Assembly: GCF_003367075.2 (NCBI RefSeq) | Contig: NZ_CP065936.1 | Location: 2,610,001-2,642,000 of the forward strand | Source: Cylindrospermopsis raciborskii Cr2010 | GTDB taxonomy: Bacteria; Cyanobacteriota; Cyanobacteriia; Cyanobacteriales; Nostocaceae | Direction of reading: 5' to 3' | DNA length: 32,000 bases | Part shown: positions 3,313 through 32,000 of the stretch, piece after piece | Layout: every line of letters starts with the position of its first letter | Position numbering within the stretch: position 1 is the first letter of the stretch | Notes under the pieces: model-generated | The model's database searches: none | What the model was told of the DNA's origin: nothing | Seen by the model: only the letters and a program-made list of their open reading frames with translations | Made by a program: the position numbers and the translations under genes

Positions 3313-3340
3313 AAAAAATGGTTTTTAATTATACATTTCC

Positions 3341-4147
3341 ATGGATGCCAAAGATCTGTTAGCAACAATTAACAACCTGATTGAACAGGCCAAAAGGGGA
3401 GAGATAGATCCCTGGAATGTGGAAGTAGTTGAGGTAATTGACCGGTATTTAGAATTCATGTCACCCCAAGGTACCACTCAAGGTTATGAATCAGATTTGC
3501 ACCAGTCCGGTCAGGCTTTTCTATCCGCATCTATGCTTGTTCTTTTTAAAGCAAATACCTTAATGGAGTTGTCAAGAATAGATAGTGAAATAGATAATAG
3601 TTCTGAAGATGTAGTTACAGATGATAACAATACAGAGTCACATAGTATAGAGAGGTTGCAGTTAGAGAGGCAATTAAGAAGGCGGACCGCTGCCATGCCC
3701 CCACCTAAGCGTCGCGTTACTCTGGTAGAATTAATCGAGCAGTTACAGATTATGGCTAGTCAGCTAAAGGAGGTAGAAAAGCCAAACAAATCGGAGCGAC
3801 CTAGGCGTCAGCCAACTATGAAAACCATGAAAGCGGCCTTAGAATTAGCCCACCAGGAAAATCTCACCCAGGTTGCTGTGGAGGTGGAACAGGTGTTGCT
3901 TCTAGCAGCAAAAGAAGAAAATTCATCAGAACCATCCTGGGGATTAGAAGAACTGGTAGAGTTGTGGAGTGGTACACAACAAGCAAATCAGGTGGACAAA
4001 AAATCTAGCAGTGAGCACAATTCCGAGCATGGTAACCTAGTCAGTGTGTTTTGGGCACTATTGCTCCTTTGTGCCCAGTCTAAAGTAGAGCTATTCCAGG
4101 AAGAATTTTATCAGGAAGTCAAAGTGCGGTTATTAAGACAGAAGTAG
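3341..4147 (+). CDS. scpA: Segregation and condensation protein A (kleisin subunit of the SMC complex)
   Basis: 268 aa. The N-terminal motif is RGEIDPWNVEVVEVIDRYL. There is an acidic/low-complexity middle region. The C-terminal winged-helix-like end is VSVFWALLLLCAQSKVELFQEEFYQEV. This is the pattern I recall for cyanobacterial ScpA. Confidence 0.8.
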   Translation: MDAKDLLATINNLIEQAKRGEIDPWNVEVVEVIDRYLEFMSPQGTTQGYESDLHQSGQAFLSASMLVLFKANTLMELSRIDSEIDNSSEDVVTDDNNTESHSIERLQLERQLRRRTAAMPPPKRRVTLVELIEQLQIMASQLKEVEKPNKSERPRRQPTMKTMKAALELAHQENLTQVAVEVEQVLLLAAKEENSSEPSWGLEELVELWSGTQQANQVDKKSSSEHNSEHGNLVSVFWALLLLCAQSKVELFQEEFYQEVKVRLLRQK

Positions 4148-4330
4148 TTGCTAGTACCCTAAATTCTTAGATCAAATTTGATAAATATATGGTAATGGTA
4201 AATTATTGATTGGTGGGCCAGCTATAACTAAAAATCCGTGGTTGCCAAAAAGTATTGGATAATCAAACTATAATTGGGTATTTTAATGATAATAAACTGG
4301 CTTGTGGTTGAGGAACAGGAGTAACATTTT

Positions 4331-5500
4331 ATGAAAGCAATGATTCTAGCAGCGGGTAAAGGCACTCGTGTACGCCCTATTACATATACCATTCCTAAAC
4401 CAATGATTCCCATTCTGCAAAAGCCAGTAATGGAGTTTTTGCTAGAGTTATTGCGTAAACATGGGTTTGACCAGATCATGGTTAATGTGAGCCATTTAGC
4501 TGAGGAGATAGAAAATTATTTCCGTGATGGTCAAAGGTTCGGAGTGCAGATTGGTTATTCTTTTGAGGGTAAAATAGACGATCAAGGGAAATTAGTGGGG
4601 GAAGCTATCGGTTCAGCTGGGGGAATGCGTCGTATCCAAGATTTCTCACCTTTTTTTGATGAAACATTTGTAGTTTTGTGTGGTGATGCTTTAATTGATT
4701 TAGACCTCACCGCAGCAGTTAAGTGGCACAGGTCTAAGGGTGCAATGGCTACTATTATTACCAAGTCTGTCCCCCAAGAGGAAGTTTCTAGTTATGGTGT
4801 GGTTGTCACAGATCATGATAACCGAGTGCGAGCTTTTCAGGAAAAACCATCCGTTGAAGAAGCTCTCAGCACCAATATTAACACCGGTATTTATATCTTT
4901 GAGCCAGAAGTGTTTAAGTATATCCCATCCGGTGTTGAATATGACATTGGTAGTCAGTTGTTCCCCCACCTGGTGGAAATTAATGCTCCCTTTTATGCTA
5001 TCCCCATGGATTTTGAATGGGTAGATATTGGTAAAGTACCTGATTATTGGCGGGCAATTCGCGGTGTTTTACTGGGAGAGATTAAAAATGTACAAATACC
5101 CGGTTATGAAGTTGCTCCAAATATATATACTGGTTTAAATGTAGCCGTAAATTGGGATCGGGTAGATATTACTGGACCTGTTTACATTGGTGCTATGACT
5201 CGAATTGAGGATGGGGCCAAAATTGTCGGACCATCCATGATTGGACCAAATTGCTGGATTTGTGGGGGTGCGACTGTGGATAATAGTGTGATTTTTGAAT
5301 GGTCTCGCTTAGGTCCAGGAGTTCGCTTGGTAGATAAGTTGGTATTTGGACGGTATTGTGTAGATAAAATGGGCGCTGCTATTGACGTACAAGCAGCAGC
5401 TTTAGACTGGCTAATTACTGATGCACGTCAAACCCTACCCGCTGAAATTCCTCCAGAACACCAAGCGATCGCCGAGTTGTTAGGAGCAATTACAGTTTAG
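4331..5500 (+). CDS. Sugar-phosphate nucleotidyltransferase (NDP-sugar pyrophosphorylase, GDP-mannose pyrophosphorylase-like) with C-terminal left-handed beta-helix region
   Basis: 389 aa. The N-terminal signature is MKAMILAAGKGTRVRPIT..PKPM. Also present are VLCGDALIDLDL and YGVV...V..F.EKP. The C-terminal part has hexapeptide-repeat-like segments (GPVYIGAMTRIEDGAKIVGPSMIGPNCWICGGATVDNSVI). Confidence 0.85.
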   Translation: MKAMILAAGKGTRVRPITYTIPKPMIPILQKPVMEFLLELLRKHGFDQIMVNVSHLAEEIENYFRDGQRFGVQIGYSFEGKIDDQGKLVGEAIGSAGGMRRIQDFSPFFDETFVVLCGDALIDLDLTAAVKWHRSKGAMATIITKSVPQEEVSSYGVVVTDHDNRVRAFQEKPSVEEALSTNINTGIYIFEPEVFKYIPSGVEYDIGSQLFPHLVEINAPFYAIPMDFEWVDIGKVPDYWRAIRGVLLGEIKNVQIPGYEVAPNIYTGLNVAVNWDRVDITGPVYIGAMTRIEDGAKIVGPSMIGPNCWICGGATVDNSVIFEWSRLGPGVRLVDKLVFGRYCVDKMGAAIDVQAAALDWLITDARQTLPAEIPPEHQAIAELLGAITV

Positions 5501-7817: not shown

Positions 7818-9704
7818 ATGAAATTTTCCTGGAGAGTTGTAGCACTTTGGTCAGTATTGGCCCTGGTAATAGGCTTTTTTCTCTGGCAAGGTACATTTGC
7901 TGGATCCCCAGGGGATCAAAGCAAAAATGCTGCCAATACCAGAATGACCTACGGACGATTTTTAGAATACCTGGATGCTGATCGTGTAACCAGTGTAGAC
8001 CTATACGACGGGGGTAGAACAGCTATTATTGAAGCCCTGGATCAGGATATTGAGAACCATGTTCAACGTTGGCGTGTAGATCTCCCCTTCAATGCGCCCG
8101 AACTAGTGAACAAACTAAAAGAACATCAAGTCAGTTTTGATGCTCACCCAGTTCGTAACGACGGTGCCATCTGGGGTCTATTAGGCAATTTAGTCTTCCC
8201 CGTGTTATTGATTGGCGGTTTATTCTTTTTGTTCCGTCGTTCTAACAACCTTCCTGGGGGACCAGGTCAAGCCATGAGCTTTGGTAAATCTCGTGCTCGT
8301 TTCCAAATGGAGGCTAAAACCGGAGTAAAATTTGATGACGTAGCTGGTATTGAAGAAGCTAAAGAAGAATTACAAGAAGTTGTTACCTTCTTAAAGCAAC
8401 CAGAGAAATTTACTGCAGTAGGGGCGAAAATTCCCAAAGGTGTGTTGCTAGTAGGACCACCGGGAACAGGTAAAACCCTATTAGCAAAAGCAATTGCTGG
8501 TGAAGCAGGCGTACCATTCTTTTCTATTTCCGGTTCGGAATTCGTAGAAATGTTTGTGGGTGTGGGAGCTTCCCGAGTTCGTGACCTGTTTAAAAAAGCC
8601 AAAGATAACGCCCCTTGTATTATCTTTATAGATGAAATTGATGCTGTAGGTCGTCAACGGGGTGCGGGTATAGGTGGTGGAAATGATGAGCGGGAGCAGA
8701 CCCTGAACCAATTGTTAACGGAAATGGATGGTTTTGAAGGTAACACTGGCATCATTATTATTGCTGCTACCAACCGTCCTGATGTCCTTGACTCAGCTCT
8801 TTTACGTCCTGGACGTTTTGACAGACAGGTGACGGTAGATACACCTGACATTAAAGGGCGGTTAGAAATCTTAGAGGTTCATGCCCGCAACAAGAAACTA
8901 GATCAAAGCGTGTCCTTAGAGGCAATTGCCCGTCGAACTCCTGGATTTAGCGGTGCTGACCTAGCCAACTTATTGAATGAAGCGGCCATTTTGACCGCCA
9001 GAAGACGCAAAGAAGCAATTACCCTATTAGAAATTGATGATGCGGTTGACCGGGTAGTAGCAGGGATGGAAGGCACTCCTTTAGTAGACAGCAAGAGTAA
9101 GCGATTAATTGCCTACCATGAAATAGGACATGCCTTAATAGGTACTTTGTTAAAAGATCATGATCCAGTCCAAAAAGTCACCCTAATTCCCAGAGGACAA
9201 GCACAGGGTTTAACCTGGTTTATGCCTAATGAAGAACAAGGATTAATTACCCGTTCTCAACTCAAGGCGAGAATTACAGGTGCTTTAGGAGGGCGTGCAG
9301 CTGAGGATGTAATTTTTGGTGCAGCAGAAGTTACTACCGGTGCAGGAAATGATTTACAACAGGTAACTGGTATGGCGCGCCAAATGGTAACACGTTTCGG
9401 TATGTCCGAACTTGGTCCCCTATCCCTAGAAAGTCAACAAGGGGAAGTCTTTTTAGGACGTGATTGGACAACCAGATCGGAGTATTCTGAATCTATTGCC
9501 GCTCGTATTGACGCACAAGTGAGAACAATTGTAGAAGAGTGTTATGATTTGGCAAAAAACATCATGAAGCAAAATCGTACTCTTACTGATCGTCTAGTAG
9601 ATCTTTTGATTGAAAAAGAGACTATAGACGGTAATGAGTTCCAGCAAATCGTAGCTGAGTATACTGTTGTTCCCGATAAAACCCAGTTTGTTCCCCAGCT
9701 ATAA
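7818..9704 (+). CDS. ftsH: ATP-dependent zinc metalloprotease FtsH (resembles the FtsH2/slr0228-type paralog)
   Basis: 628 aa. Motifs: Walker A GPPGTGKT, Walker [32 protein letters not shown], zinc site HEIGHAL. The N-terminus [11 protein letters not shown] and the C-terminus [13 protein letters not shown] match my recollection of the Synechocystis FtsH2 type. The paralog assignment is from memory only. Confidence 0.97.
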
Positions 9705-9790
9705 GTAGGGAATTATTTGTAGGATGGGTGGATGTAACCCATCCTAAGATTTTCCTGGGTTGAGTTTAATAACTCAGATTCAATCCCAAC
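9705..9790. repeat. Short dispersed intergenic repeat, copy A. It fills the whole convergent ftsH/hlyD spacer and carries a nested hairpin insertion.
   Basis: Three collinear blocks are shared with 23642-23689: GTAGGGA (9705-9711), ATTATTTGTAGG (9712-9723) and TTGAGTTTAATA (9760-9771). Both copies end in CCCAAC. Copy A has 36 extra bases (9724-9759) between the second and third blocks. Confidence 0.55.
9720..9746. terminator. Stem-loop between the convergent ftsH and hlyD-family genes; likely intrinsic terminator for ftsH
   Basis: Perfect 10-bp stem tAGGATGGGT (9720-9729) / ACCCATCCTa (9737-9746) with the 7-nt loop GGATGTA. On the + strand it is followed by AGATTTTCC. The T-tract is short and absent on the - strand side. 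Confidence 0.5.
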
Positions 9791-11287
9791 TTACCTGACG
9801 GAAAAAGCCTCATTGAACCTTCTAGTAATTGGTTCCACAATAAAAGTCAGAATTGATTTTTTGCGAGTCACTATTTCCGCATTTGCCATCATCCCTGGAG
9901 TAAACTCCACCTCCTGACCATCCATAGTAATTGAATGCTTATTTAACCTAATCCTAGTGGGAAAAACCAAACCTAATTTTTCATCAACCACCGCATTAGG
10001 ACTAATTTGTAAAACCTCAGCATCCACCACACCGAATTCTTGAAAAGGGAAAGTTGCCAACTTCACCTTTGCTGACATACCTTGACGAATAAAACCAATA
10101 TCCCGATTGAGAACTTTTACTTCTAGTAGAATATCTTCTCCTTCGGGTAAAATAGAGAGTAATTCTTCACCGGATTGAACTGGACCCTTAGTGGCTTTGA
10201 TTTTATAAATTATTCCCGATACTGGGGCCTTAATTATTTCTTTCTCCCTTTGTTTTTTTGCCTGGTCTAATTGTCCAACAATATTGGTCATTTCTTCTCT
10301 ACGTTTATTTATCTGGGTTAAAATTTCGCTTTGTCTCTCTGATGTTAATCTTAAACTTTGACTTTTAGCGGATTGATAAGTCTGTTGTGCTTGATTAATT
10401 TCCTGTTTTTGAGCAGCAATATCTTTTTCTAAAGAGGTCACCCTATCCTGAGCTTCCAGTAATCTGTTTTTAGCATTATTTACCTCATTAACAGCTCTGA
10501 TAATATCCGTATTTGCCCTATTTACCCTCTCCAAAGCTTCCAGATAATCAACCCTAGGAACTGCACCAGGAGTGAGTAGAGTCCTGAGATTTTCTTCTCT
10601 AGTGGTAGCAATTTTCAAATTGCTTTGTATTTGATTACGAATATTTTCTGCATTGACCAAATTGTTTTGGGAATTAACTACACCAGGTTTACTGTTAGCC
10701 AGATTTTCTTGTAAGCGACTCAATCTGATTTTTGCTTGCTGAATATTGGCAAGTTGCCGTTTCGCTTCTGCTTCTGCAGACATTTGTTTAGCCTTGTAGT
10801 CTGATAACCGAGAATTTAACAACTCGTCTTGTAATTTGGTTCCCGTAGTTTTTGCTCCAGTTCTTTCAGTTTCTAAACGTTGTAAATCTTCCTCAATTAA
10901 TTTACTGGCCTTTGTTAAACGGTTAATATCAGTTTGTTGAAAATCAGGATTCCTTTCAATTAACACTTGATCCTTATTAACCCGATCTCCTTCCTTGACC
11001 TTTACTGCTAAAATAGAACCATTACCCAAGGATGTGACTGGTCTAATTTGAGTAGAAGCGATTAACTCACCCGTTGCAGTTGCGACTTCATCAACTTGAG
11101 AAAGGTGAGCCCATAAAATACTGCTAAATACAATTGCACTAATAGTTCCAGCTAATAGTCGGGTATAAATAGGAGGGAGTTCTTGTACTGCTTTACCCAA
11201 TTCATAAGATAATTTTTCCTCTGGTTTGGCAAAGTTTTCCTTAGTTTGACGAACTTGAACCGCATTGGCCCATGGGGAATATTTCAT
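9791..11287 (-). CDS. HlyD-family periplasmic adaptor / membrane fusion protein (type I secretion or efflux)
   Basis: N-terminal TM helix LLAGTISAIVFSSILWAHL. Barrel-sandwich segments (ILAVKVKEGDRVNKDQVLIE ... APVSGIIYKIK) flank a roughly 230-aa coiled-coil region rich in Q/E/K/N/L. The ORF track starts at a TTG (11296). I prefer the ATG at 11287 (MKYSPWANAV). Confidence 0.85.
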   Translation of the reverse strand: MKYSPWANAVQVRQTKENFAKPEEKLSYELGKAVQELPPIYTRLLAGTISAIVFSSILWAHLSQVDEVATATGELIASTQIRPVTSLGNGSILAVKVKEGDRVNKDQVLIERNPDFQQTDINRLTKASKLIEEDLQRLETERTGAKTTGTKLQDELLNSRLSDYKAKQMSAEAEAKRQLANIQQAKIRLSRLQENLANSKPGVVNSQNNLVNAENIRNQIQSNLKIATTREENLRTLLTPGAVPRVDYLEALERVNRANTDIIRAVNEVNNAKNRLLEAQDRVTSLEKDIAAQKQEINQAQQTYQSAKSQSLRLTSERQSEILTQINKRREEMTNIVGQLDQAKKQREKEIIKAPVSGIIYKIKATKGPVQSGEELLSILPEGEDILLEVKVLNRDIGFIRQGMSAKVKLATFPFQEFGVVDAEVLQISPNAVVDEKLGLVFPTRIRLNKHSITMDGQEVEFTPGMMANAEIVTRKKSILTFIVEPITRRFNEAFSVR

Positions 11288-13639: not shown

Positions 13640-15219
13640 AAAAACTATATGATCATATTCAGCCAGATCCAGTTCGCTTAGAAATTTTTAAAAATCTCTA
13701 TCAATTCATTGCCGAACAAATGGGAATAGTCCTGCAAAACACAGCTGTATCAGTTAATATTAAGGAACGTCTGGATTTTTCCTGCGCTATTTTTGACAGT
13801 TCTGGTTTATTAGTTGCTAACGCTCCTCATATTCCTGTGCATTTAGGTTCCATGAGTGAAAGCGTGCGCTGTTTAATTAATGATTTGGGAACTACAATTA
13901 AACCAGGCAATGTTTATCTATCCAATAATCCCTACAATGGGGGAACCCATTTACCTGATGTTACTGCTATCACGCCCATATTTTTACCCCCATTTTCAAA
14001 TATGTTTTTAAAAACTGGGCAAGACTCTCCCCTATTTTTTGTTGCATCCCGAGGACACCAATCAGATATCGGTGGTATTACCCCCGGATCCATGCCTCCC
14101 CATAGTACGGATATTACCCAAGAAGGGATTATTTTTGATAATTTTCTCCTGGTTCAGGAAGGAGAGCTACAAGAAACCTCTGTGAGAAATTATCTGTTAA
14201 ATCATCCCTATCCCAGTCGCAATCCTGAGCAAAATATAGCAGATTTTAAAGCTCAAATTGCCGCTAACGCCAGGGGAAGCCAAGAATTAATAAAAATGGT
14301 TGATCACTATGGGCTGGAAACTGTAAAAGTTTATATGCAGTTTGTACAAGATAATGCGGAAGAATCAGTAAGAAGAACTATCAATGTTTTAAAAAATGGA
14401 TCCTTTACATATGTCATGGATAGTGGGGCAAAAATTCAAGTTCAAGTCACTATTAATCGGGAAAATCGCACAGCTAAAATTGATTTTACGGGCACATCAC
14501 CACAATTAAAGAGTAATTTTAATGCACCTAAAGCTGTAACCCAAGCAGCAGTATTATATGTCTTTAGAACTCTGGTAGATGACAATATTCCTCTTAATGC
14601 TGGCTGTCTCAAACCTTTAGAAATTATTATTCCTCAAGGTTGTATGCTAAATCCCACCTATCCTGCAGCAGTAGTAGCAGGAAATGTGGAAACATCACAA
14701 ACTATTGTTGATGCTTTATATGGTGCCCTAGGTGTAATGGCTGCTTCCCAAGGAACTATGAATAATTTCACTTTTGGCAATGAAAAATATCAATATTATG
14801 AAACTATTTGTGGTGGTTCCGGAGCAGGTATGGACTTTGATGGCACAGATGCAGTTCACACTCACATGACTAATTCCCTACTTACCGATCCAGAAGTGCT
14901 AGAAACCCGTTATCCGGTAATAGTGGAAAGTTTTACTATCCGTGAGAATAGTGGGGGTAAAGGAAAATATTCCGGGGGTAATGGGGTGGTCAGAAAAATC
15001 AAATTTCTGGAATCCATGACGGCAAATATTCTTTCTGGTCATCGTTTAGTCCCCCCCTTTGGATTAAATGGTGGAGCACCAGGAAAGGTGGGAAACAACT
15101 GGATACAACGTGAAAATGGCATCCAAGAGGTTTTAGATAGCACTGCTACCGCAGAAATGCAACCAGGAGATATTTTTGTCATAGAAACTCCTGGTGGTGG
15201 TGGATTTCAGGAGCAATAA
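13636..15219 (+). CDS. Hydantoinase B/oxoprolinase family protein (HyuB-like)
   Basis: 527 aa. The start overlaps the upstream stop (ATGA at 13636-13639). Motifs: [57 protein letters not shown]. Confidence 0.9.
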
Positions 15220-18233: not shown

Positions 18234-19721
18234 ATGCAATCCATAGATATACCTACTCAGCAAAATTTAGAAAAATCCTATACTCGCGAAGATTGGCAAC
18301 AGGGATATGAGTCCCTGAAAGAAGAGTATGACTATTGGATTGACGAGGTAGAAGGTGAAATACCCAAGGAGCTGGAAGGGACAGTTTTTAAAAATGGTCC
18401 TGGGTTATTAGATATCAACGGACAAAGAATACATCATCCCTTTGATGGTGATGGAATGATTAGTCAAATTATATTTAGTGAAGGTCGAGCCCACTTCCGA
18501 AATCGATTTGTACAGACTGAGGGTTATTTAGCGGAAAAGAAAGCGGGTAGAATTCTTTATCGCGGAGTATTTGGGACTCAAAAACCTGGTGGTTGGTTAG
18601 CTAATATACTGGACTTTAAAACCAAGAATATTGCTAATACAAATGTTATTTACTGGGGTAAAAAACTACTGGCATTGTGGGAAGCAGCGGAACCTTATTC
18701 ATTAAATCCTTACACCTTAGAAACCTTGGGCAAAGAATATTTTAATCATGGTTTATCATCAGGAGAAGCTTTCAGTGCCCATCCCCGGGTAGATCCCCAG
18801 GGCAAACTAGTTAACTTTGCCATTGAACCAGGAATAAAAACAAAGATTACAATTTTTGAACTCAATCAAGATGCTGAAGTGGTAAGTAAGCAAAATCATA
18901 AAATTGATGGTTTTTGCTTTATTCATGATTTTGTTATCACCGAAAATTATTGTATTTTCTTCCAAAACCCCCTCAGTTTTAACCCCATTCCTTTTGCCTT
19001 AGGAAAAGTTGGTGCAGCACAATGTATTAAACCGGAAAAAAATCTCCCCACCAAAATTATTCTCATTCCCCGTCAGCATAGTCCCATGGTATGTTCGGGA
19101 GTAAAGGTTTTAGAAACCACAGCTGGGTTTATTTTTCACCATGCTAATGGTTTTGAAATAGACAATAAAGTTATTGTTGATTCTATCTGTTATGATTCCT
19201 TAGCCTTAACAGACATTGAAACCAATCAAGATTATCGACAAACAAACTTTGATGCGATCGCCCCTGGAAAGTTATGGAGATTTGAGCTAGATTTATTGTC
19301 AGAAACAGTGACAGCCAAATTAATAAATGACCGCGCCTGTGAATTTCCTGCTATTCATCCGGATCACGTAAGCAGACCCTACCGTTATTTATACATGAGC
19401 GCTGCTCATAATCCCCGGGGAAATGCTCCTTTACAAGCCATTTTAAAAATTGATTTAGAGTTGGGGAAACAAGAGATTTGGAGTGCTGCACCCAGGGGTT
19501 TTATGGGTGAGCCAATCTTTATTCCCCATCCCCATGGTCAACAAGAAGATGCAGGATGGATTGTAGGCTTGGTTTATAATGCAGAACATCACCGTTCATA
19601 TATGGTAATTTTAGATGCTAGTGACCTAAAAAAGGGAACAATAGCTAAATTACATTTAAAGCATCATATTCCCCATGCACTACATGGTAGTTTCACAAGG
19701 GATGTGTTAGTGAACCGATAA
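18234..19721 (+). CDS. Carotenoid cleavage oxygenase (apocarotenoid-15,15'-oxygenase-like, RPE65/CCD family)
   Basis: 495 aa. The four iron-ligand histidine contexts typical of the family are present: FSAHPRVD, FIHDFVITENY, FIFHHANGFE, HIPHALHGSF. The N-terminal motif is G.IP.EL.GT.FKNGPG. Confidence 0.9.
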   Translation: MQSIDIPTQQNLEKSYTREDWQQGYESLKEEYDYWIDEVEGEIPKELEGTVFKNGPGLLDINGQRIHHPFDGDGMISQIIFSEGRAHFRNRFVQTEGYLAEKKAGRILYRGVFGTQKPGGWLANILDFKTKNIANTNVIYWGKKLLALWEAAEPYSLNPYTLETLGKEYFNHGLSSGEAFSAHPRVDPQGKLVNFAIEPGIKTKITIFELNQDAEVVSKQNHKIDGFCFIHDFVITENYCIFFQNPLSFNPIPFALGKVGAAQCIKPEKNLPTKIILIPRQHSPMVCSGVKVLETTAGFIFHHANGFEIDNKVIVDSICYDSLALTDIETNQDYRQTNFDAIAPGKLWRFELDLLSETVTAKLINDRACEFPAIHPDHVSRPYRYLYMSAAHNPRGNAPLQAILKIDLELGKQEIWSAAPRGFMGEPIFIPHPHGQQEDAGWIVGLVYNAEHHRSYMVILDASDLKKGTIAKLHLKHHIPHALHGSFTRDVLVNR

Positions 19722-23764: not shown

Positions 23765-24931
23765 ATGCAGACCAAACCATTTTACACGATTAACTCCCTG
23801 ATGCCATTTTCTATTATGGATCGCTACTTGGCGATGCAGCTACTACCCATCTTTCTATTTGGTGTTGGTGCTTTTACTTCCGTAGTCTTAGCCATTGACA
23901 GTTTATTTGAGTTGTTGCGCAAAGTAGTAGAATCCGGACTACCAATTAACATTGCATTAAAAGTGTTTGTGCTGAAATTGCCCTACGTCATGGTTTATTC
24001 CTTTCCCATGTCTACTTTACTAGCAACTTTAATGACTTATAGCAAGTTATCCAGTGACAGTGAACTGATAGCTTTAAGAGGATGTGGTGTGAGCGTGTAT
24101 CGAATAGTCCTAACAGCAGTTTTGCTGAGTGGTTTAGTTACTGGAATGACCTATATATTTAATGAATATATTTCCCCCGCAGCCAATTATGAAGCTAGTG
24201 TTACTCTAGAAAGGGCCTTAAAATCAGATCAACCATCATTTAAACAACAGAATATTTATTATCCAGAATATCGAGAAGAAAAAACAAAAGATGGCGGTAG
24301 TAGTAGACTATTGGCGCGCTTATTTTATGCTGATGAATTTGATGGCAAAAAAATGAAAGGACTGACAATTATTGATCGTTCTCAAGCGGGAGTAAATCAA
24401 ATTGTTGTATCTGAATCTGCCCAATGGAATGCATATAAACAAGTTTGGGACTTTTATAATGGCACTATTTATTTAGTTGCTCCTGATCGTTCTTATCGAA
24501 ATATTTTGCGTTTTGAACATCAGCAATTACAATTGCCTAGCACACCCTTAATTGTGGCTAAAAATAGTCGAGACTATGAAGAAATGAACATTGCCCAATC
24601 ATTACAACAACTAGAAATAGAAAAGTTAGCAGGTAATCCCCAAAGAATTAAAAAATTGGAGGTCAGAATCCAACAAAAAATAGCCTTCCCCTTCATTTGT
24701 ATAATTTTTGGTTTAGTTGGTTCAGCTATGGGAACCATCCCCCAACGCACTGGTAGAGGAAGGAGTTTTGGTGTCAGCATTATAGTCATTTTTATTTATT
24801 ATTTATTACTATCTGTTTGTGGAGCTTTAGCACAAGCAGAAATTTTGTCTCCCTTTGTAGGTGCATGGTTACCCAATCTGTGTGGGTTAGGGATGGGAAT
24901 TTTAATTCTTATGCAATTTTCCCAAAAGTAG
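23765..24931 (+). CDS. LptF/LptG-family LPS export permease (YjgP/YjgQ)
   Basis: 388 aa. The N-terminus has IMDRYL...LLP.F. There are three TM segments, a large periplasmic beta-jellyroll-like insert, then three C-terminal TM segments (FPFICIIFGLVGSAMG ... VIFIYYLLLSV ... WLPNLCGLGMGILIL). The true start may be Met13 or Met18 (23801/23816). Confidence 0.85.
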   Translation: MQTKPFYTINSLMPFSIMDRYLAMQLLPIFLFGVGAFTSVVLAIDSLFELLRKVVESGLPINIALKVFVLKLPYVMVYSFPMSTLLATLMTYSKLSSDSELIALRGCGVSVYRIVLTAVLLSGLVTGMTYIFNEYISPAANYEASVTLERALKSDQPSFKQQNIYYPEYREEKTKDGGSSRLLARLFYADEFDGKKMKGLTIIDRSQAGVNQIVVSESAQWNAYKQVWDFYNGTIYLVAPDRSYRNILRFEHQQLQLPSTPLIVAKNSRDYEEMNIAQSLQQLEIEKLAGNPQRIKKLEVRIQQKIAFPFICIIFGLVGSAMGTIPQRTGRGRSFGVSIIVIFIYYLLLSVCGALAQAEILSPFVGAWLPNLCGLGMGILILMQFSQK

Positions 24932-24941
24932 ATGGGGATGT

Positions 24942-27900
24942 TTAACGATTGGGGTTTGAGCAAACAACCCGGAAACCCAAATTGTTCTTGTCAGAGAGAT
25001 GACGATTACGGGAACCAGAACGACAGTGTTTAGCAGAATCACACCAAGAACCACCACGTAACAGATGGCCGCGAAAAACACCAAAAATTCCCTTCTCAAC
25101 CCATGGACTACCATCCTTTGGTATATCTTGGTAGTGATCACGCCAATGATCTAAACACCATTCCCAAACGTTCCCGTGCATATCGTATAATCCAAATGGG
25201 TTGGGAGGGAAACTTCCCACCTCCGTAGTTTGTTTGCGATATTGTCCTTGAGGTGCTAAACTATCCCCATGGTCTCCATGATAGTTGACCAGATCTGTTG
25301 TAATGGTGTCACCAAAATGAAATTCTGTGCTGGTTCCCCCCCTACAAGCATATTCCCACTGTGCTTCACTAGGTAAGGTGTATATCCTTCCAGTAATCTG
25401 ACTGAGTTCTTCGCAGAAATCAAGTGCTTGACTCCACTTTACCCTTTCTACTGGGCGTTTGTCACCCTTGAAATAAGAAGGGTTATCTCCCGTAACAGCT
25501 TGATATTGTTCCTGTGTTATCTCGTATTTTCCCATGAAAAAACTGGGTATTGTGACTAAATGTTCAGCAATCCCCTCCGCATTTCCCCGATTTTCAGCTG
25601 ACTTGATGGTAAATGTCCCTCCTGGAATTTCTACCATTTCTAAGGTGATATCATCACCTAAATCCTCCACAAAGTATATCGCACTAGCGTCACGTTTGAT
25701 TATCTCTCCGGAATTTTTCTTACTAACTACTTCAAAGCTTAGGATCTTTAAGTTAAGGTAATTACGGAGTTTAATGGTCAGTGTTAATCCTCCCTTCTCC
25801 CAAAACTTGAGGTTTTCCTTTAGGTCTAAACTACCAAGACTTAAAGCTCGGTTAAAATCCTCTATTGCTCCCTGTCTGTCTCCCAATTCGTAGCGAATGT
25901 TCCCTCGTATGTTATACGCTTCAACATAATTGGAGTTAATCTTCAAAGCTTGATTAAAATCCTCTATTGCTCCCTGTCTATCCCCTAATTTATAGCAAAC
26001 AATTGCTCGATTGTTGTATGCTTCTGCATAATAAGGATTTATTTGGAGAGCTTGACTAAAATCATCTTTAGCCCATTCCCTATCTCCCAAATCTGTGTAT
26101 GCAACTCCCCGATTGTTGTATGCTTGAGCGTAATTGGGATTAATGTTTAAAGCCTGATTAAAATCTTCTATGGCTTTTTGTCTATTTCCCAATTCATAGC
26201 GTGCATATCCTCTATTAATATATGATTCTGTATAATTAGAGGCAATTATAGTAGCTTGAGTAAAATCTTCTATAGCCAATTGCCTCTCGCCCAAACAAAT
26301 ACGCACAATTCCCCTATTGTTATAGGCTTGGGCATAGTTGGAGTTAATATTAAGAGCGTGATTGAAATCCTCTATTGCTCCCCGATTATCCCTCAACTCA
26401 TAGCGAACAATTCCCCTATTGTTATAAGCTTGGGCATAGTTGGAATTAATATTAAGAGCATGATTGAAATCCCCTATTGCTCCCTGGTGATCTCCCAGCT
26501 CATAGCGAACAATTCCCCGATTGTTATAAGCATCAGCATAACTAGGGTCAATATCCAGACCATGATTGAAATCATTTATCGCCCCTTGGCTATCTCCTAA
26601 CTTATAAAGAGCAGTTCCTCTACCAATATAGGCATCAGCACAATTAGACTTAATTTCTAGAGCTTGAGTGTAATCATCTATTGCTCTCTGGTAGTTTGCT
26701 AAATCATAGTAAGCAATCCCCCGATTATAGTAGGCATCAGCATAATCAGGACTAATATTAATGGCTTCCGTATAATCATCTATTGCCGTTTGATAGTCTG
26801 CCATATGACTACGAACAATTCCTCGATTGTTATATACGTAAGCATAATCAGGATTAAGATTCAGGGCCTGGGTATAATCATCTATTGCTCCCTGGTTGTC
26901 TCCCAACTCACTTCGGGTCAGTCCCCGTGCAATGTAGGTTTCAGTATCATCAGGGTTAATATTGAGTGCTTGAGTATAATCATTTATCGCCCCTTGTTTA
27001 TCTCCCAGTTCGCTACGAAGCATTCCCCAAGCGTAGTAGGCTTGAGCATAATTAGGATTAATATTAATAGCTTGAGTATAATCATCTACCGCTCCTTGTT
27101 TATCTCCTAAGCTAGTGCGAGCAATTCCTCGGTTGTAGTAGGCTTGAGCATAGTTAGGATTAAGACTCAAGCTCTGGGTATAATCATCTATTGCTCCTTG
27201 TTTATCTCCTAGGTTAAAACGAGCAATTCCCCGACCGTAGTAGGCTTGAGCATAATTAGGATTAATATTAATGGCTTGGGTATAATCATCTATTGCTCCC
27301 TGGTTGTCTTCTAAATTAATGCGGGTAGTTCCCCAATTATAATAGGCTTCAGTATAGTTATAATCAACTCTGAGAGCTTGAATGTAATCATCTATTGCTC
27401 CTTGATAATCTCCCAAGTAAGTACGAATAGCTCCCCGATTATTATATGCTTCGGCATAATTAGGATTAATTCTGATAGCTTGGGTGTAATCATCCATGGC
27501 CGCCTTGTTAGAACCCAGGTCACTACGAATTATGCCCCGGTTGTAATAGGCACTAGCAAACTTAGGATTAAGATTCAAGCTCTGGGTATAGTCGTCTATT
27601 GCTCCCTGCTTATCTCCTAATTGACTGCGAGCAACACCTCGATTATGGTACGCTTGGGCATAATTAGGATTAATTCTAATTGCCTGGCTAAAATCATTGA
27701 TAGCTTCTTGATGGTTTCCTAAGTCACAGTAAACAAGTCCTCTAGCAGCATAACCATCAGCAAAGTGGGAATTAATCCTGATAACCTGATTAAAATCATC
27801 TATTGCTCCCTGCTTATCCCCTAAATCATATCGAGCAAGTCCCCGTCTAGTATAAGCATCAAAAAAAGCAGAATTAAGGTGAAGAGCTTGGTTGAAATCA

Positions 27901-28784
27901 TCTATTGCTTTTTCAAGATACCCCATATCACTATGAGTGACTCCGCGACTATAAGCAGCTAAAGCCAGATTAGGGTTAATATCAAGAGCTTGGTTAAAAT
28001 CCTCTATTGCTCCTTGCCCATCCCCCAAATTGCTGCGGGCAATTCCCCGCTCCATATATGCCTGAGCTAGGTTAGAATTAATACTTATGGACTGGGTAAA
28101 ATCATTTATTGCCCCCCGATGGTCTCCTAAGTCGCTGCGGGCAATTCCTCGACAAAGGTAGGTATGGGCATCCTCTTCCAGGTCAATTTCTAAAACCGCC
28201 TGATTGCCTAGGGAAATAATAGTGTCAGTCTGTCTTGGTGATAGGGTACTACAGACAGCCTGCATTTGCGCTAAATGAACTGAAAATTTAGGTAATGCCT
28301 GTTCAAATTCAGTTTCTATATGTTGCAATATTTCTAACTCTGCCCCATAATCAACTGAACTAGAAGGAGATATAAAAGGATTGGGGGTAAAAGTAGTGTT
28401 TCCACCAAATGTGCGATGAAACCAGATAGCTAACTCCCTAGCTATCTTTAATATAGTCAAAGCCTGACTAGAATCACTAGTATACTCATAGGCTGCTCTA
28501 TCACTAACAACCCTAACTTGATGGAATAGAAGGGCTACCTTTTGTGGTAGAATTCCCTTTAGCTCTAATTGGTTCAATAGGTCTGCTTGGTTTTCAACAG
28601 TGGAATGGAAATTTCCCGTTCTAGCAGCAATTAATTGAGCCAAGAGTTGGCCAAAGTAGCACAATTTAACCAGACAAGTGTTGGGTTGATTCCACACATA
28701 GCCCTCAGCCAAAATACCAAGACGTACTAACTGTTGTAAATCCTGCGGTTGTAAAAACTGGAAGTTGACTGATTCTTTTGTCAT
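24942..28784 (-). CDS. 1280-aa multidomain protein: DUF4145-like N-terminal domain, about 23 tandem TPR units, C-terminal FGE/SUMF1-type (formylglycine-generating-enzyme-like) module
   Basis: One uninterrupted ORF with an ATG start (MTKES). See the three sub-features below for domain evidence. The + strand ORFs inside it (26256-26600, 26790-27110, 27378-27620) are antisense artefacts of the repeat. Confidence 0.9.
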   Translation of the reverse strand: MTKESVNFQFLQPQDLQQLVRLGILAEGYVWNQPNTCLVKLCYFGQLLAQLIAARTGNFHSTVENQADLLNQLELKGILPQKVALLFHQVRVVSDRAAYEYTSDSSQALTILKIARELAIWFHRTFGGNTTFTPNPFISPSSSVDYGAELEILQHIETEFEQALPKFSVHLAQMQAVCSTLSPRQTDTIISLGNQAVLEIDLEEDAHTYLCRGIARSDLGDHRGAINDFTQSISINSNLAQAYMERGIARSNLGDGQGAIEDFNQALDINPNLALAAYSRGVTHSDMGYLEKAIDDFNQALHLNSAFFDAYTRRGLARYDLGDKQGAIDDFNQVIRINSHFADGYAARGLVYCDLGNHQEAINDFSQAIRINPNYAQAYHNRGVARSQLGDKQGAIDDYTQSLNLNPKFASAYYNRGIIRSDLGSNKAAMDDYTQAIRINPNYAEAYNNRGAIRTYLGDYQGAIDDYIQALRVDYNYTEAYYNWGTTRINLEDNQGAIDDYTQAININPNYAQAYYGRGIARFNLGDKQGAIDDYTQSLSLNPNYAQAYYNRGIARTSLGDKQGAVDDYTQAININPNYAQAYYAWGMLRSELGDKQGAINDYTQALNINPDDTETYIARGLTRSELGDNQGAIDDYTQALNLNPDYAYVYNNRGIVRSHMADYQTAIDDYTEAINISPDYADAYYNRGIAYYDLANYQRAIDDYTQALEIKSNCADAYIGRGTALYKLGDSQGAINDFNHGLDIDPSYADAYNNRGIVRYELGDHQGAIGDFNHALNINSNYAQAYNNRGIVRYELRDNRGAIEDFNHALNINSNYAQAYNNRGIVRICLGERQLAIEDFTQATIIASNYTESYINRGYARYELGNRQKAIEDFNQALNINPNYAQAYNNRGVAYTDLGDREWAKDDFSQALQINPYYAEAYNNRAIVCYKLGDRQGAIEDFNQALKINSNYVEAYNIRGNIRYELGDRQGAIEDFNRALSLGSLDLKENLKFWEKGGLTLTIKLRNYLNLKILSFEVVSKKNSGEIIKRDASAIYFVEDLGDDITLEMVEIPGGTFTIKSAENRGNAEGIAEHLVTIPSFFMGKYEITQEQYQAVTGDNPSYFKGDKRPVERVKWSQALDFCEELSQITGRIYTLPSEAQWEYACRGGTSTEFHFGDTITTDLVNYHGDHGDSLAPQGQYRKQTTEVGSFPPNPFGLYDMHGNVWEWCLDHWRDHYQDIPKDGSPWVEKGIFGVFRGHLLRGGSWCDSAKHCRSGSRNRHLSDKNNLGFRVVCSNPNR
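24945..25643 (-). other. C-terminal FGE-sulfatase/SUMF1-type domain (aa ~1048-1280) of the giant protein
   Basis: LEMVEIPGGTF, FFMGKYEITQEQYQAV, PVERVKWSQALDFCEELS, YTLPSEAQWEYACRGGT, FGLYDMHGNVWEWC, RGGSW......CRS..R.......NLGFRVV. It is preceded by the FEVV....GEII.R......F.EDLG lead-in typical of the cyanobacterial version of this module. Confidence 0.85.
25836..28166 (-). repeat. Tandem array of about 23 TPR units (34 aa / 102 bp each), aa 207-983 of the giant protein
   Basis: The consensus is visible by eye: (Q/E/D)AY.NRG.(A/V)R..LGD.QGAI.D(F/Y).QAL.INPNYA. There are 22 full units plus a 29-aa terminal unit. Adjacent units at 26305-26406 and 26407-26508 differ at about 10 of 102 nt by my hand alignment. 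Confidence 0.9.
28404..28784 (-). other. N-terminal domain of the giant protein (aa 1-127), DUF4145-like
   Basis: The pattern L..LG.LAE.......P..CLVKL...G.LLAQ.I....G........Q.DLLN.L...GILP......FH.VR......A....S...A...LKIA.ELA.WF resembles the DUF4145 helical domain found at the N-termini of HsdR and Abi-like proteins. The usual GN.A.H stretch is replaced here (SDRAAYEY). Assignment is from memory and has not been searched. Confidence 0.45.
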
Positions 28785-28929
28785 AACTCAATTTGACCAC
28801 TGTGACACAAAATTAATGGTAGTGTGGGACAGACTCCAATATTACTACACACTACTCATGAGTGTCAATCTCAATCAAGACCACGCTGGTACGAAAAATT
28901 ACCTAAAACTTTTCTAGGAGGTGGACATC

Positions 28930-30042
28930 ATGGCTGCTAAGAGTTTTCCTATAAGTAGCCTCTCTATAAAAGGATACAAGTCTATCAAAAACCTTCAAGA
29001 CTTCCCCATGCGATCGCTCAATATTCTTATCGGTGCCAATGGCGCAGGAAAGAGTAATTTTGTCACATTTTTCGCAATGCTCAGTGAACTGGTAGAGCAG
29101 CGATTACAAGTTTGGGTACAAAAGCAGGGCGGTGCGGAGCGAGTTCTGAGCTTTGGAATCAGAGAGACTCCTGAGTTGTATTCTAGAATTTATTTTGCGC
29201 GGAATCAATATAGCTTTACTCTAGGACCGACAGCATCTTCTGGTTTTGTTTTCTTGGAGGAGGAAGAGTATTTCGATGGCCCACGCTTCGATCCAAAAAA
29301 GAAAACTAAATCAGGTCAAACAGAGTCATGTTTGAGAGATTGGAAAGCAGCTGCAAAGCAAGACAGTATGGAGGATTACATTTATTCCTCAATGTCAAGC
29401 TGGAAGGTCTTTCACTTTCACGATACTAGTGACATGGCTGGCGTAAAACGCCCTTGTTCAGTTCACGACAATAAGCATCTCAGACCCGAAGCGTCTAACC
29501 TTGCTGCTTACCTATACCTTCTGCAACAAAAGGAGACAGCCATATATAATCAGATTCGTAAGACCGTGGCGTTGGCGATCCCATTCTTTGATGATTTTGT
29601 TCTTGAACCTACCACTCTACCAACAGAAGAACAGCAAATTCGGTTGCTATGGAAACAGAAAGACAGCGATTATGCTTTTTGGCCCAGTCAGCTTTCTGAT
29701 GGTTCACTCCGATTCATCTGTTTAGTTACGGTTCTTATGCAACCCAATCCTCCTTCCACTATCATCATCGACGAACCAGAGTTAGGACTACATCCCCATG
29801 CCATTGTTTTGCTTGGTTCTCTCATTCGAGCAAACTCCAACCGAACCCAGGTTATCGTTTCCACTCAATCTGTCCCATTACTTAACGAGTTTAGCATAGA
29901 CGACTTGATTGTAGTTGAACGGGAGGAAGGAGCTTCCGTGTTCAAACGCTACAATGGCGAGGATTTCTCCTCTTGGCTAGAAAATTATAGCATTGGTGAA
30001 CTGTGGGAGAAGAATATTCTTGGAGGGAGGCCTAGAAAATGA
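28930..30042 (+). CDS. ABC-type AAA ATPase (AAA_21/AAA_15-like), partner of the downstream DUF4276 gene
   Basis: Walker A LIGANGAGKSNF, ABC-signature-like LSDGSLR, Walker B/D-loop TIIIDEPELGLHP, H-loop position VSTQS. AGGAGG (28916-28921) lies 8 nt before the ATG at 28930, so I prefer that start to the GTG at 28921 used by the track. The stop overlaps the next start (ATGA at 30039-30042). Confidence 0.85.
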   Translation: MAAKSFPISSLSIKGYKSIKNLQDFPMRSLNILIGANGAGKSNFVTFFAMLSELVEQRLQVWVQKQGGAERVLSFGIRETPELYSRIYFARNQYSFTLGPTASSGFVFLEEEEYFDGPRFDPKKKTKSGQTESCLRDWKAAAKQDSMEDYIYSSMSSWKVFHFHDTSDMAGVKRPCSVHDNKHLRPEASNLAAYLYLLQQKETAIYNQIRKTVALAIPFFDDFVLEPTTLPTEEQQIRLLWKQKDSDYAFWPSQLSDGSLRFICLVTVLMQPNPPSTIIIDEPELGLHPHAIVLLGSLIRANSNRTQVIVSTQSVPLLNEFSIDDLIVVEREEGASVFKRYNGEDFSSWLENYSIGELWEKNILGGRPRK

Positions 30043-30491
30043 TTCGCGTTCACATCATTTGTGAAGGACAGACAGAAGAAGATTTTATCAAAGAGGTATT
30101 GCGTCCCCATTTTTCCCAAAAGGGAATAGCAGTCTACCCCTCCCTCATTGGTAAGCCAGGTCACAAGGGAGGTAATTTCAAGATTGAACGCCTACTGAAT
30201 GATGTGCGTAACCGCATCAAAGGGGACACAGAGGCTTTCTGTACTACTATGTTTGACTACTATGGTCTTCCCACCTCATTTCCTGGGAAGACTACAAGCA
30301 CTGCGGGGATGACCTCAGAAGAAAAATCAAATATCCTGTGTCGGGAGCTAGCACAGGTGATTGAGAGTCAGCGATGTTACCCTGGGATAAGAAACTTCGC
30401 TGCTGTCTGTACATCTTTATCACCCCTACCAGAACAATTAATCACAATTCGTGGACTACCTACTAACTGGGGACATAAAGTTTCTAAATAA
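30039..30491 (+). CDS. DUF4276-family (Toprim/RloB-like) protein, apparently 3'-truncated. Family homology runs about 30039-30376; the remaining 38 codons are antisense trpB sequence, so this is a likely pseudogene.
   Basis: The N-terminus [21 protein letters not shown] and the [11 protein letters not shown] region fit the DUF4276 pattern I recall. From codon 114 on, the frame reads the reverse complement of the trpB 3' end (the trpB stop complement TTA is at 30377-30379). The later conserved part of the family (I recall an HEFEALLF-like motif and a total length near 190-220 aa) is missing. Confidence 0.6.
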
Positions 30492-31639
30492 GCGATCGCA
30501 TGGGATGTTTCCAAAGCTGGTATAATCCCCTCCAATTGGGAAAGTCTTTGAAAAGCCTCTAAAGCTTCCCTATCTGTTACACTATAATATTCAGCTCTAC
30601 CGGTATCCTTCATATAACTGTGTTCTGGTCCAACACCAGGATAATCAAGTCCTGCACTAATAGAGTGTGGCTCAATAACCTGCCCCTCCCCGTCTTGTAG
30701 CAAATAACTCATAGCACCATGCAATACACCCACTTGTCCTTTGGTCAAAGTAGCAGCATGTTTACCAGTATCCACCCCTTCACCAGCTGCTTCCACACCA
30801 ATTAATCGTACAGAAGGTTCTTTAACAAACTCATGGAAAAGTCCCATAGCATTAGAACCCCCTCCCACACAAGCCAAAAGAATATCTGGTAAACCGCCCC
30901 ATTTTTCCATAGCTTGCTCCCGGGTTTCCCGACCAATCACAGCATGAAAGTCTCGCACCATCATGGGGTAAGGATGGGGACCAGCAACTGATCCTAGAAT
31001 ATAGTGAGTTGTTTCCACATTAGTCACCCAATCCCGAATGGCTTCAGATGTGGCATCTTTAAGAGTACCTGTTCCCGCAGCTACCCCCCTCACTTCCGCA
31101 CCCATTAATCGCATTCTAAATACATTTAAAGATTGGCGTTCCATGTCATGAACGCCCATATAAATAACACATTTTAAACCAAACCGGGCGCATACCGTTG
31201 CTGTAGCTACCCCATGCTGTCCTGCTCCGGTTTCAGCAATAATTCGCTCTTTACCCATGCGTTTGGCTAAAAGTACCTGACCAAGAGCATTATTAATTTT
31301 ATGAGCACCTGTATGATTTAAATCCTCACGCTTTAAATAAATTTGCGCCCCAGTACCATCAGGAAGAGCATAATGAGCAGTAAGTCTTTGGGCAAAGTAT
31401 AAAGGTGTGGAGCGTCCTACATAGTCTTTTAGTAAAGCCTGTAATTCCGTTTGAAAATCCGACTCCTGACGATAACGCTGATAAGCCGCTTCCAATTCAA
31501 ACAAAGCTGGCATTAAAGTTTCTGGAACATATTTGCCCCCAAAGCGACCAAAACGTCCCAGACTATCGGGGACAGAACTAGCTTGGGACAGGTTAGGAGA
31601 AAGGGGAGTAGTAATCACAGATTCATTAAAAAGAGACAA
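30377..31639 (-). CDS. trpB: Tryptophan synthase beta chain
   Basis: Motifs: [14 protein letters not shown], the PLP-lysine motif [41 protein letters not shown], and C-terminal CSGRGDKD. The track start is a TTG at 31639. A GTG at 31618 (ITTPLSP...) is an alternative start. Confidence 0.95.
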
Positions 31640-31675
31640 CAGGGTTAATTTTAAGAGTTAATTCTAATTCTATAT

Positions 31676-31702
31676 TCTATCTGCAATTATCTTGCAGATA
31701 GA
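31676..31702. terminator. Perfect 11-bp stem-loop in the ndhJ-trpB spacer (candidate ndhJ terminator or trpB regulatory element)
   Basis: TCTATCTGCAA (31676-31686) / TTGCAGATAGA (31692-31702) with loop TTATC. It lies 34 nt downstream of the ndhJ stop on the - strand. There is no clean U-tract, only AT-rich flanks. Confidence 0.4.
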
Positions 31703-31735
31703 TATTAATCTGGACAAGAGCATGAAAAATGCTAC

Positions 31736-32000
31736 TTAATAAGCATCTTGCAACTCGTAGAAATCCGGCGAAATGTAGTCCTTACGCAAAGGCCAACCCA
31801 CCCAATCTTCAGGCATCAGGATTCGTTTCAAATTGGGATGACCCTCATAAATAATACCAAACATGTCATAGGATTCCCGTTCTTGCCAGTCAGCAGTCCG
31901 CCAAATCCAGTACACAGATGGTACAACGGGATTCTCTCTGGGTAAGAATACCTTAAGTCTTACCTCAGCTGGTTTATCAGCATCACTACTGACCTTAATC
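31736..32000 (-). CDS. ndhJ: NAD(P)H-quinone oxidoreductase (NDH-1) subunit J, C-terminal 87 codons (gene starts beyond the window)
   Basis: The reverse-strand translation is ...[61 protein letters not shown] with the stop complement at 31736-31738. The track ORF 31748-31945 (+) is its antisense shadow. Confidence 0.9.

Follow-up and report, generated by a model that had tools for sequence, protein, structure and literature searches.

HEC-01 (Hma-embedded candidate 01 of PADLOC-DB v2) pairs an ABC ATPase with a TOPRIM protein and is found in Hma systems (Payne et al. 2024, bioRxiv 10.1101/2024.01.29.577857). DUF4276 is a member of the Toprim superfamily that has a conserved Glu and, following strand beta-3, a DxD motif; it is homologous to Mad4 (PMC12065111). 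Here, a HEC-01 locus of the cyanobacterium Cylindrospermopsis raciborskii Cr2010, whose second gene encodes a DUF4276 protein, is described. It lies between an lptF/G-family permease gene (lptG) and trpB, next to a giant gene, in a 32,000-nt stretch of contig NZ_CP065936.1 (positions 2,610,001 to 2,642,000), which is called the window. This interval very probably contains two independent units: a decaying HEC-01 cassette in a variable slot, and a stable lineage-specific giant gene. They would be neighbours because the slot is a hotspot of recombination and deletion, not because they constitute one system. The features, in window coordinates, are as follows.

28921 (GTG start) or 28930 (ATG) to 30042, plus strand: HEC-01A ATPase gene, 370 aa from the ATG, apparently intact
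30039-30491, plus strand: DUF4276 open reading frame (ORF), 150 codons, overlapping the trpB 3' end in antisense
30039-30372, plus strand: HEC-01B remnant within the DUF4276 ORF, codons 1-111 of 222
24942-28784, minus strand: giant gene, 1280 aa, from the ORF list and Pfam
28785-28929: divergent spacer of 145 bp between the giant gene and the ATPase gene, part of the strain-variable segment
28793-30382: strain-variable slot from the giant gene start to the trpB stop, holding the HEC-01 remnant here
23765-24931, plus strand: lptG, lptF/G-family permease, left core flank, with TIGR04408 and TIGR04407 matches
30377-31639, minus strand: trpB, right core flank, complete, TIGR00263 E = 2e-186, above the cut-off

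The initial annotation, made from the sequence alone, had proposed a three-gene conflict locus in an unnamed combination, with the hedge that the genes could be two unrelated accessory neighbours. The hedge is supported by the comparative evidence below. The combination is not unnamed, as the pair is the PADLOC candidate HEC-01, and the giant gene is kept without the pair. The three ORFs were found in the ORF list at the coordinates claimed, as were the 10 bp that separate the stop codons of lptG (24931) and the giant gene (24942). The 145-bp spacer holds when the ATPase starts at the ATG at 28930, which has GGAGG upstream. Pfam returned the TPR, FGE-sulfatase, AAA_21 (6e-26) and DUF4276 domains that had been called from the sequence. 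One detail was shifted: the DUF4276 homology had been placed up to the base before the trpB stop codon, and really ends at 30372, 4 nt before that stop. The flanking genes are lptB, the lptF/G-type permease and the complete trpB.

HEC-01A matched the PADLOC profile PDLC04175 with E = 1.5e-144, over residues 10-371 of the 373-aa ORF with the GTG start and positions 5-362 of the 363 in the profile. Its Pfam domain is AAA_21. HEC-01A and HEC-01B are co-directional and overlap by ATGA at 30039-30042, as they do in four other HEC-01 loci (L084, L125, L126 and L128); the two genes are translationally coupled in the cassette. The locus resembles HEC-01 in being a two-gene cassette with a start/stop overlap, and the window ATPase and the HEC-01B of a sister strain match their profiles end to end. 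It differs in two respects. In the window, only 111 of the 222 HEC-01B residues are left, and the cassette is outside Hma, BREX or restriction-modification systems, sitting between the TPR/FGE gene and trpB. Intact HEC-01 pairs were observed inside type 1 BREX, between pglX and pglZ (L084/L085 and L125), and alone among housekeeping genes (L126-L128), and pairs with about 46% identity are on Nostocales plasmids. Embedding in another defence system is common for HEC-01, not obligatory. The partner protein is 222-240 aa long in the sampled contexts (L084/85, L122, and L125-L128).

The ATPase is widespread. Of the 8,000 candidates scored, 7,999 pass E <= 1e-20; across phyla, most of the best 120 share 63-70% identity with it. 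The AF2 model of HEC-01A (pLDDT 89.6) shows an ABC/SMC-head fold, and its best matches among solved structures were PtuA, SMC/RecN heads, OLD (6p74) and GajA (8x5i), with TM of about 0.45-0.56. The sequence search of solved structures gave only marginal matches to UvrA, OLD, and SMC for the ATPase (E >= 3e-4), and none for DUF4276 or the N-terminal module of the giant protein. The predicted model fits the assignment as an ABC ATPase, with no closer solved relative shown.

The OLD/PARIS-like design, an ABC ATPase with a small Toprim partner, had been correctly recognized in the initial annotation. The predicted ATPase fold matches OLD, GajA, and PtuA at TM 0.45-0.5. PARIS (AriA/AriB), class-1 OLD and Gabija GajA likewise have an ABC/SMC-head-like ATPase with a Toprim-superfamily nuclease, paired or fused. 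The window ATPase gives weak PADLOC matches to AriA (1.6e-25, well below its match to HEC-01A), Old, and GajA, of which those to Old and GajA cover the C-terminal ATPase motifs only. The differences are clear. The window partner is DUF4276 instead of DUF4435 (AriB) or Toprim_Old. AriA is about 55 kDa, whereas the window ATPase, at 370 aa, is much shorter and lacks a long coiled-coil insert. OLD class 1 and GajA are single polypeptides, whereas the ATPase and the Toprim protein are encoded by separate genes in the window. MADS (methylation-associated defence system) is similar in that Mad4 is a DUF4276 homologue (PMC12065111) and that the window ATPase partly matches MAD3 models. However, the ATPase reaches 93 bits with the NCBIfam MAD3 model, whose cut-off is 420, over the C-terminal half only, and the other MADS genes are missing.

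By analogy with OLD, Gabija, and PARIS, the ATPase of an intact HEC-01 pair would sense an infection cue and license the TOPRIM nuclease to cut nucleic acid. A complete DUF4276/TOPRIM partner is not found downstream of the ATPase in the window. The window HEC-01B matched the PADLOC profile with E = 3.4e-36 at positions 12-130 of 230 only, and Pfam DUF4276 at positions 1-88 of 192. An exact-sequence look-up of the giant protein led to three further contigs, L122, L123, and L124. L122 (GCA_045377415.1) is from a sister strain with an identical giant protein and encodes an intact 222-aa HEC-01B (1.3e-77, profile positions 12-226 of 230). The order in L122 is trpB, 11 nt, the DUF4276 stop, the 222-aa DUF4276 gene, the 370-aa ATPase gene, the same spacer and the giant gene. 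The slots of the window and L122 are 100% identical over 1,639 + 58 bp (1,697 bp, 0 mismatches), with a single 342-bp gap. The comparison confirms the truncation of DUF4276 at trpB, which had been noticed in the initial annotation. The junction is between window positions 30372 and 30373, 4 nt outside the trpB stop. The 342 bp lost comprise HEC-01B codons 112-222 together with the stop codon and, beyond it, 7 nt of spacer. Because the HEC-01B stop is deleted, the ORF continues in antisense through the trpB 3' end to 30491. The zero substitutions relative to the intact allele indicate, at the level of sequence, that the deletion is very recent.

The same junction is present in four contigs or assemblies: L079 (NCBI assembly), L081 (JGI metagenome contig), and L080 and L082 (Logan contigs). 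L080 and L082 both end at window position 30428, about 50 nt into trpB past the junction. A de Bruijn assembler produces such a shared end when the strains in a sample carry different slot alleles, which hints at coexistence of the slot polymorphism in natural blooms.

All five intact HEC-01B proteins have a conserved block after residue 111: RFIPYVQM(Y/H)EFE(A/G)LLFS(D/E), followed by TAPSK and then by C.(L/R)F..WL..LE.L. The whole of this block is absent from the window product. The acidic EFE..FS(D/E) stretch, which follows a predicted strand, is likely to be the counterpart of the Toprim DxD motif. The predicted HEC-01B effector would thus be non-functional in the window, with the ATPase gene still intact.

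Other alleles of the cassette are damaged in different ways. L087, a metagenome contig 98.4% identical to the window, has two other deletions. In one, most of the ATPase gene is lost between two GTGAACTG repeats. In the other, the middle of DUF4276 is lost, and the true C-terminus and stop are kept. L123 (GCA_006523545.1) and L124 have a 1,689-bp deletion, after which the spacer and the ATPase gene's first 96 nt are all that is left. The cassette in the slot would be decaying by separate deletions, the one in the window being the loss of the C-terminal half of HEC-01B. The 342-bp deletion of the window and the 1,689-bp deletion of L123 and L124 share the exact right-hand breakpoint (...TTTTCA to its left and GATGTTACC to its right), 4 nt outside the trpB stop. 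There is no microhomology at the window-type junction or at the L123/L124-type junction (between positions 292 and 293 of the L123/L124 slot segment). L124 is otherwise 99.97% identical to the window, and two of the three mismatches are in the spacer adjoining the deletion.

The two closest relatives of the ATPase outside the species are on contigs L083 and L086. Their DNA is HIP1-rich and 41% GC, and they are presumably cyanobacterial for that reason. The HIP1 site GCGATCGC is present at 29010-29017 of the window, as originally reported, and the cyanobacterial history that had been ascribed to the ATPase agrees with the cyanobacterial density of HIP1 around these closest relatives. In L083, the ATPase is 81% identical to that of the window, and the DUF4276 partner has an in-frame internal deletion. 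In L086, the ATPase is 94% identical, and DUF4276 is gone after 7 nt. The layout of L083 (171-1430, 2134-3515, and 3532-3780) places the ATPase between an N-terminally truncated BrxL fragment and an apparent PglX start. By its gene content, the L083 locus resembles a broken-down BREX system of a different cyanobacterium in which a HEC-01 is embedded.

Such repeated damage raises another explanation, in which the cassette is not dead. The orphan ATPase would be retained or domesticated, or the 150-aa HEC-01B remnant would still work, and the repeated nuclease loss would be selected rather than neutral. The product of the remnant consists of the N-terminal Toprim half and a 39-residue antisense-trpB tail. 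The ATPase ORF is uninterrupted and of full length. Measured against L083 and L086, both without a working HEC-01B, its dN/dS is 0.13-0.23, and three independent cyanobacterial lineages (the window, L083, and L086) keep HEC-01A with HEC-01B damaged. However, dN/dS integrates the time before the partner was lost, and the sample is small. The window allele has not a single substitution against the intact one, and after so recent a loss any selection on the orphan ATPase could not yet show; the sister alleles L087, L123, and L124 delete the ATPase too. On this balance, a cassette that is not dead is unlikely.

The slot contains another type of cargo in a related species. In Raphidiopsis brookii D9 (L001), window positions 23768-28792 and 30383-32000 are collinear at 93-94% identity (blastn), and in place of the 1,590 bp between them D9 has 4,459 bp that encode a 1394-aa helicase-nuclease. 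The protein has the Pfam domains DUF4011, AAA_11, AAA_12, and MTES_1575, corresponds to PADLOC PDC-S37 (E = 0, 1385 bits), and is Hhe-like. A PDC-S37 gene occupies the same slot in L121 (Logan ERR1750013), which is 98% identical to D9. PDC-S37 and Hhe are single-gene candidates composed of DUF4011, an SF1 helicase, and a Vsr/MTES_1575 endonuclease; a gene of this type is present in the slot of D9 and L121, which marks the slot as a hotspot, and is absent from the window. The breakpoints are 8 bp upstream of the giant gene ATG and at the trpB stop. The slot is variable: the window lineage has HEC-01 in intact, truncated, and deleted states, and D9 and L121 have PDC-S37. The interval from the giant gene start to the trpB stop is a small strain-variable slot for defence-type cargo.

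The PDC-S37 gene of D9 is at L001 15020-19204 on the minus strand, and its stop overlaps the ATG of the giant gene (ATGA, 15021-15023).

The exchange of cargo could be read as a fixed sensor with exchangeable effectors, the giant protein, with an inactive DUF4145 domain, TPRs, and a C-terminal FGE-sulfatase/FGS domain, cooperating, as a resident and non-enzymatic sensor or scaffold, with whichever nuclease module fills the upstream slot. Two different candidate defence modules are in exactly the same slot, abutting the giant gene start, and the D9 giant ATG overlaps the PDC-S37 stop codon. Moreover, published surveys of conflict systems count FGS among the effector or direct-interactor domains and TPR-type repeats among those that form superstructures (PMC7159879). 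This reading is quite improbable. PDC-S37 is defined as a single-gene candidate, and the giant gene is unchanged where the slot is empty. The giant N-terminal module has lost its conserved motif, and no co-occurrence is seen outside the genus. In L121, a frameshifted giant gene is beside an apparently uninterrupted PDC-S37 gene, which is cut at the 5' end by the contig end.

In contrast to the cassette, the giant gene is stable. The protein is 100% identical in strains with intact, truncated, or deleted HEC-01. The gene is next to lptG in every slot state seen, and the syntenic D9 copy is 93% identical in nucleotides. The dN/dS of the giant gene between the window and D9 is 0.25 (0.29 for the N-terminal module, 0.23 for the TPR array, and 0.30 for the FGE domain), compared with 0.04-0.08 for the core genes lptB, trpB, and lptG. 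These values indicate that the giant gene is functional, under looser constraint than the core genes. The giant protein would thus be kept under moderate purifying selection whatever its slot neighbour is. The lptB-lptG synteny is kept across Nostocales. Neither the giant gene nor trpB was found downstream of lptG in 41 other cyanobacterial loci (40 from Nostocales or unclassified cyanobacteria and one from a Cyanophyceae metagenome-assembled genome), within <=10 kb, several contigs ending sooner. The arrangement of lptG, giant gene, and trpB is therefore genus-specific. No giant-like neighbour was seen in the seven other HEC-01 contexts (L084/85, L125, L126-L128, and L083).

In L121, the giant homologue (3323-4823) changes reading frame near codon 313, within the TPR array. 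This is either a genuine frameshift, which would make the gene dispensable there, or a fault of the assembly within a repeat.

The spacer between the two units is associated with the cassette. The homology with D9 ends at 28792, 8 bp upstream of the giant gene ATG, and the 145-bp spacer travels with the cassette, not with the giant gene. The initial annotation had suggested that the divergent genes could share a control region in the spacer, which is not supported, the spacer belonging to the variable segment. The spacer is kept in all deletion alleles (L123, L124, and L087), as it is in L122, and this would make sense if it now supplies the promoter of the giant gene. The single promoter-like match in the spacer (28868..28839, minus strand, TTGACA-18-TAATAT, 10/12) faces the giant gene. 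In the promoter and terminator scans, sites were no more frequent than in shuffled sequences, giving no support for a shared control region.

These data bear directly on the three-gene system of the initial annotation, in which the giant protein is the sensor or scaffold of the ATPase and DUF4276 pair and the three genes are co-regulated from the 145-bp spacer. Its attractions are that the genes are adjacent and divergent, that the spacer is kept in all deletion alleles, that all three proteins have domains of the conflict-system type, and that the giant N-terminus matches PADLOC PDC-M16A and the REase_I N-terminus. However, the giant gene is in place in D9 (L001) and L121 with another neighbour, and in L123 and L124 with almost none; all four lack the pair, and it was on such relatives that the initial annotation had said its single-system idea would fail. 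The other HEC-01 pairs are inside BREX or alone, never beside a giant-like gene, the giant architecture is found in this lineage only, and D9, which has the giant gene, does not share the spacer. A three-gene system is very improbable.

An assembly artefact, with the truncated DUF4276 gene as a mis-join beside trpB, has a practically negligible probability and was rejected, since the junction is seen in four independent contigs, being read through identically in L079 and L081 and reached in two Logan contigs, and the ending of the latter about 50 nt past it, just inside trpB, which might suggest a mis-join, is expected of a de Bruijn assembler with co-occurring strains that differ to the left of trpB.

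Several points weigh against the conclusion that the cassette is decaying and independent of the giant gene. HEC-01 is a candidate defence system only, whose published representative protected E. coli against no phage tested (bioRxiv 10.1101/2024.01.29.577857). The ATGA overlap in D9 hints that the giant gene is co-expressed with the upstream gene, with translational coupling to PDC-S37. Where the slot has been emptied, the strains are so close to the window (99.8-99.97% identity) that their giant genes have had no time to decay, which makes them weak evidence of independence. The stronger case comes from a single further species (D9 and L121, which is D9-like) and a few HEC-01 contexts. The inactivity of the truncated HEC-01B and of the giant N-terminal module is inferred from their motifs.

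The giant protein consists of three parts, all on the minus strand.

aa 1-205, 28170-28784, minus strand: N-terminal module, HsdR-type DUF4145/HEPN-like
aa 206-987, 25824-28169, minus strand: TPR array of 23 TPRs
aa 1049-1274, 24963-25640, minus strand: FGE-sulfatase/FGS (C-type-lectin-fold) domain, PF03781, E = 4e-45

DUF4145 in the N-terminus, as called in the initial annotation, is below the threshold in Pfam (E = 0.07) and clear by NCBIfam PRK11448 (the HsdR N-terminus, positions 2-165, E = 2e-31) and by homologues. The word-indexed search gave two matches only; the link to HsdR was seen by the exhaustive representative search and a metagenome scan. The module aligns over its full length, including the linker up to the nuclease domain, with the N-termini of 1116-1189-aa HsdR ORFs at 40-58% identity. 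These HsdR relatives carry DUF4145, HSDR_N, ResIII, Helicase_C, and EcoEI_R_C. The first 205 residues of the giant protein therefore resemble the N-terminal DUF4145 module of EcoEI-family HsdR, whereas the HSDR_N nuclease, the ResIII/Helicase_C motor, and EcoEI_R_C are all missing and TPR and FGE follow after residue 205. The match to PDC-M16A, at profile positions 3-202 of 930 only, is the same DUF4145 module. The exhaustive search recovered 1,304 relatives, and they also cap LRR, dynamin-like, Ser/Thr-kinase, and UvrD proteins. The distribution suggests that the N-terminal module is mobile and need not be a deletion scar. A recent deletion that fused hsdR to a TPR gene was considered for the origin of the giant gene and is not favoured, as the module is also fused to LRR, dynamin, kinase, and UvrD elsewhere.

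DUF4145 is a divergent member of the HEPN domains (PMC3710099). One DUF4145 protein, RAZR, depends for defence and RNA cleavage on an Arg and a His that are spaced eight positions apart (R146/H154; PMC13017515). The corresponding motif R..GN.A.H reads R..SD.A.Y in the window and D9: R91..S94 D95..Y99 (RVVSDRAAY), nt 28488-28514 in the window. The full R..GN.A.H is kept in 18 of 19 aligned relatives (one has CN for GN), and the His in 19 of 19. The modules of the window and D9 also have no coiled-coil segment of about 50 residues. Thus, the giant protein differs from the DUF4145 HEPN RNase RAZR (PD-T7-4) in that the Arg...His catalytic-type motif is not found in the window or D9, and the N-terminal module is probably catalytically inactive.

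The TPR array is composed of 23 consecutive 34-residue repeats in unbroken register without insertion, and Pfam TPR_1 recognized 21 stretches. At the DNA level, TRF reported a period of 102 nt, with about 70% matches between adjacent copies. It is likely that this periodicity is the reason why database copies of the giant protein are labelled "partial".

The FGS domain shares 55-59% identity with a very large family of Nostocales paralogues, which occur in fusions with kinases, caspases, and HEAT repeats. In cyanobacterial conflict-type proteins, FGS is always C-terminal and is proposed to bind invader molecules directly, not to be enzymatic (PMC7159879). The FGE-sulfatase fold is matched, and a C-x5-C pair near the C-terminus is a possible counterpart of the C-x4-C pair of catalytic FGE. 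No sulfatase gene is near the giant gene. The fusions of FGS paralogues to kinases and caspases argue, by domain context, for a binding role. The giant protein resembles the cyanobacterial FGS-terminal proteins (Kaur, Burroughs, Iyer & Aravind 2020, PMC7159879) in having FGS at the extreme C-terminus and variable modules N-terminal to it, and differs in having no vWA, MoxR, or STAND partner. No second copy of the last 300 nt of the giant gene, as a template repeat of a diversity-generating retroelement (DGR), was found within the 32-kb window, and the C-terminal region is not hypervariable, few residues differing between the window and D9. The combination of DUF4145, 23 TPRs, and FGS is found only in this lineage and is a variant of the known cyanobacterial FGS-terminal architecture. 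The giant protein is most likely a cytoplasmic, non-enzymatic binder or scaffold of this family.

Composition contributes little. The third-position GC (GC3) of the ATPase and DUF4276 genes is 0.41 and 0.46, compared with 0.29-0.40 for the neighbours. The overall GC of the pair is that of trpB, and the tetranucleotide deviation is <=1.1 sd, the only outlier being the TPR array, which is the strongest in the window. The composition evidence had been judged weak by hand counts, and these three measures bear this out. The accessory or island status of the pair therefore rests on synteny and the comparative evidence. The Rfam scan of 20-32 kb gave no matches. Outside the region studied, the alignment between L124 and the window is interrupted at an RPE65-family gene (window ~18997-19236), by a strain-specific deletion or rearrangement. 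This gene encodes 495 aa in L122 and L123 and is called as 137 aa in L124 (around 9558-10975).

The apparent new three-gene system is the known candidate HEC-01 with an unrelated neighbour, and is not a discovery to carry forward. The giant protein is a further host of the HsdR-type DUF4145 module with its catalytic-type motif lost, of interest only for the cataloguing of cyanobacterial FGS/TPR conflict-type proteins. The intact sister allele (GCA_045377415.1) is a ready control for tests of HEC-01 activity. What the locus offers is a natural allelic series: the intact pair, a truncated nuclease gene, gutting of both genes, loss of nearly the whole cassette, and another module in its place. 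The series is mostly within strains that are 98.4-99.97% identical, and it shows the speed of cassette erosion in a genome-reduced bloom-forming cyanobacterium.

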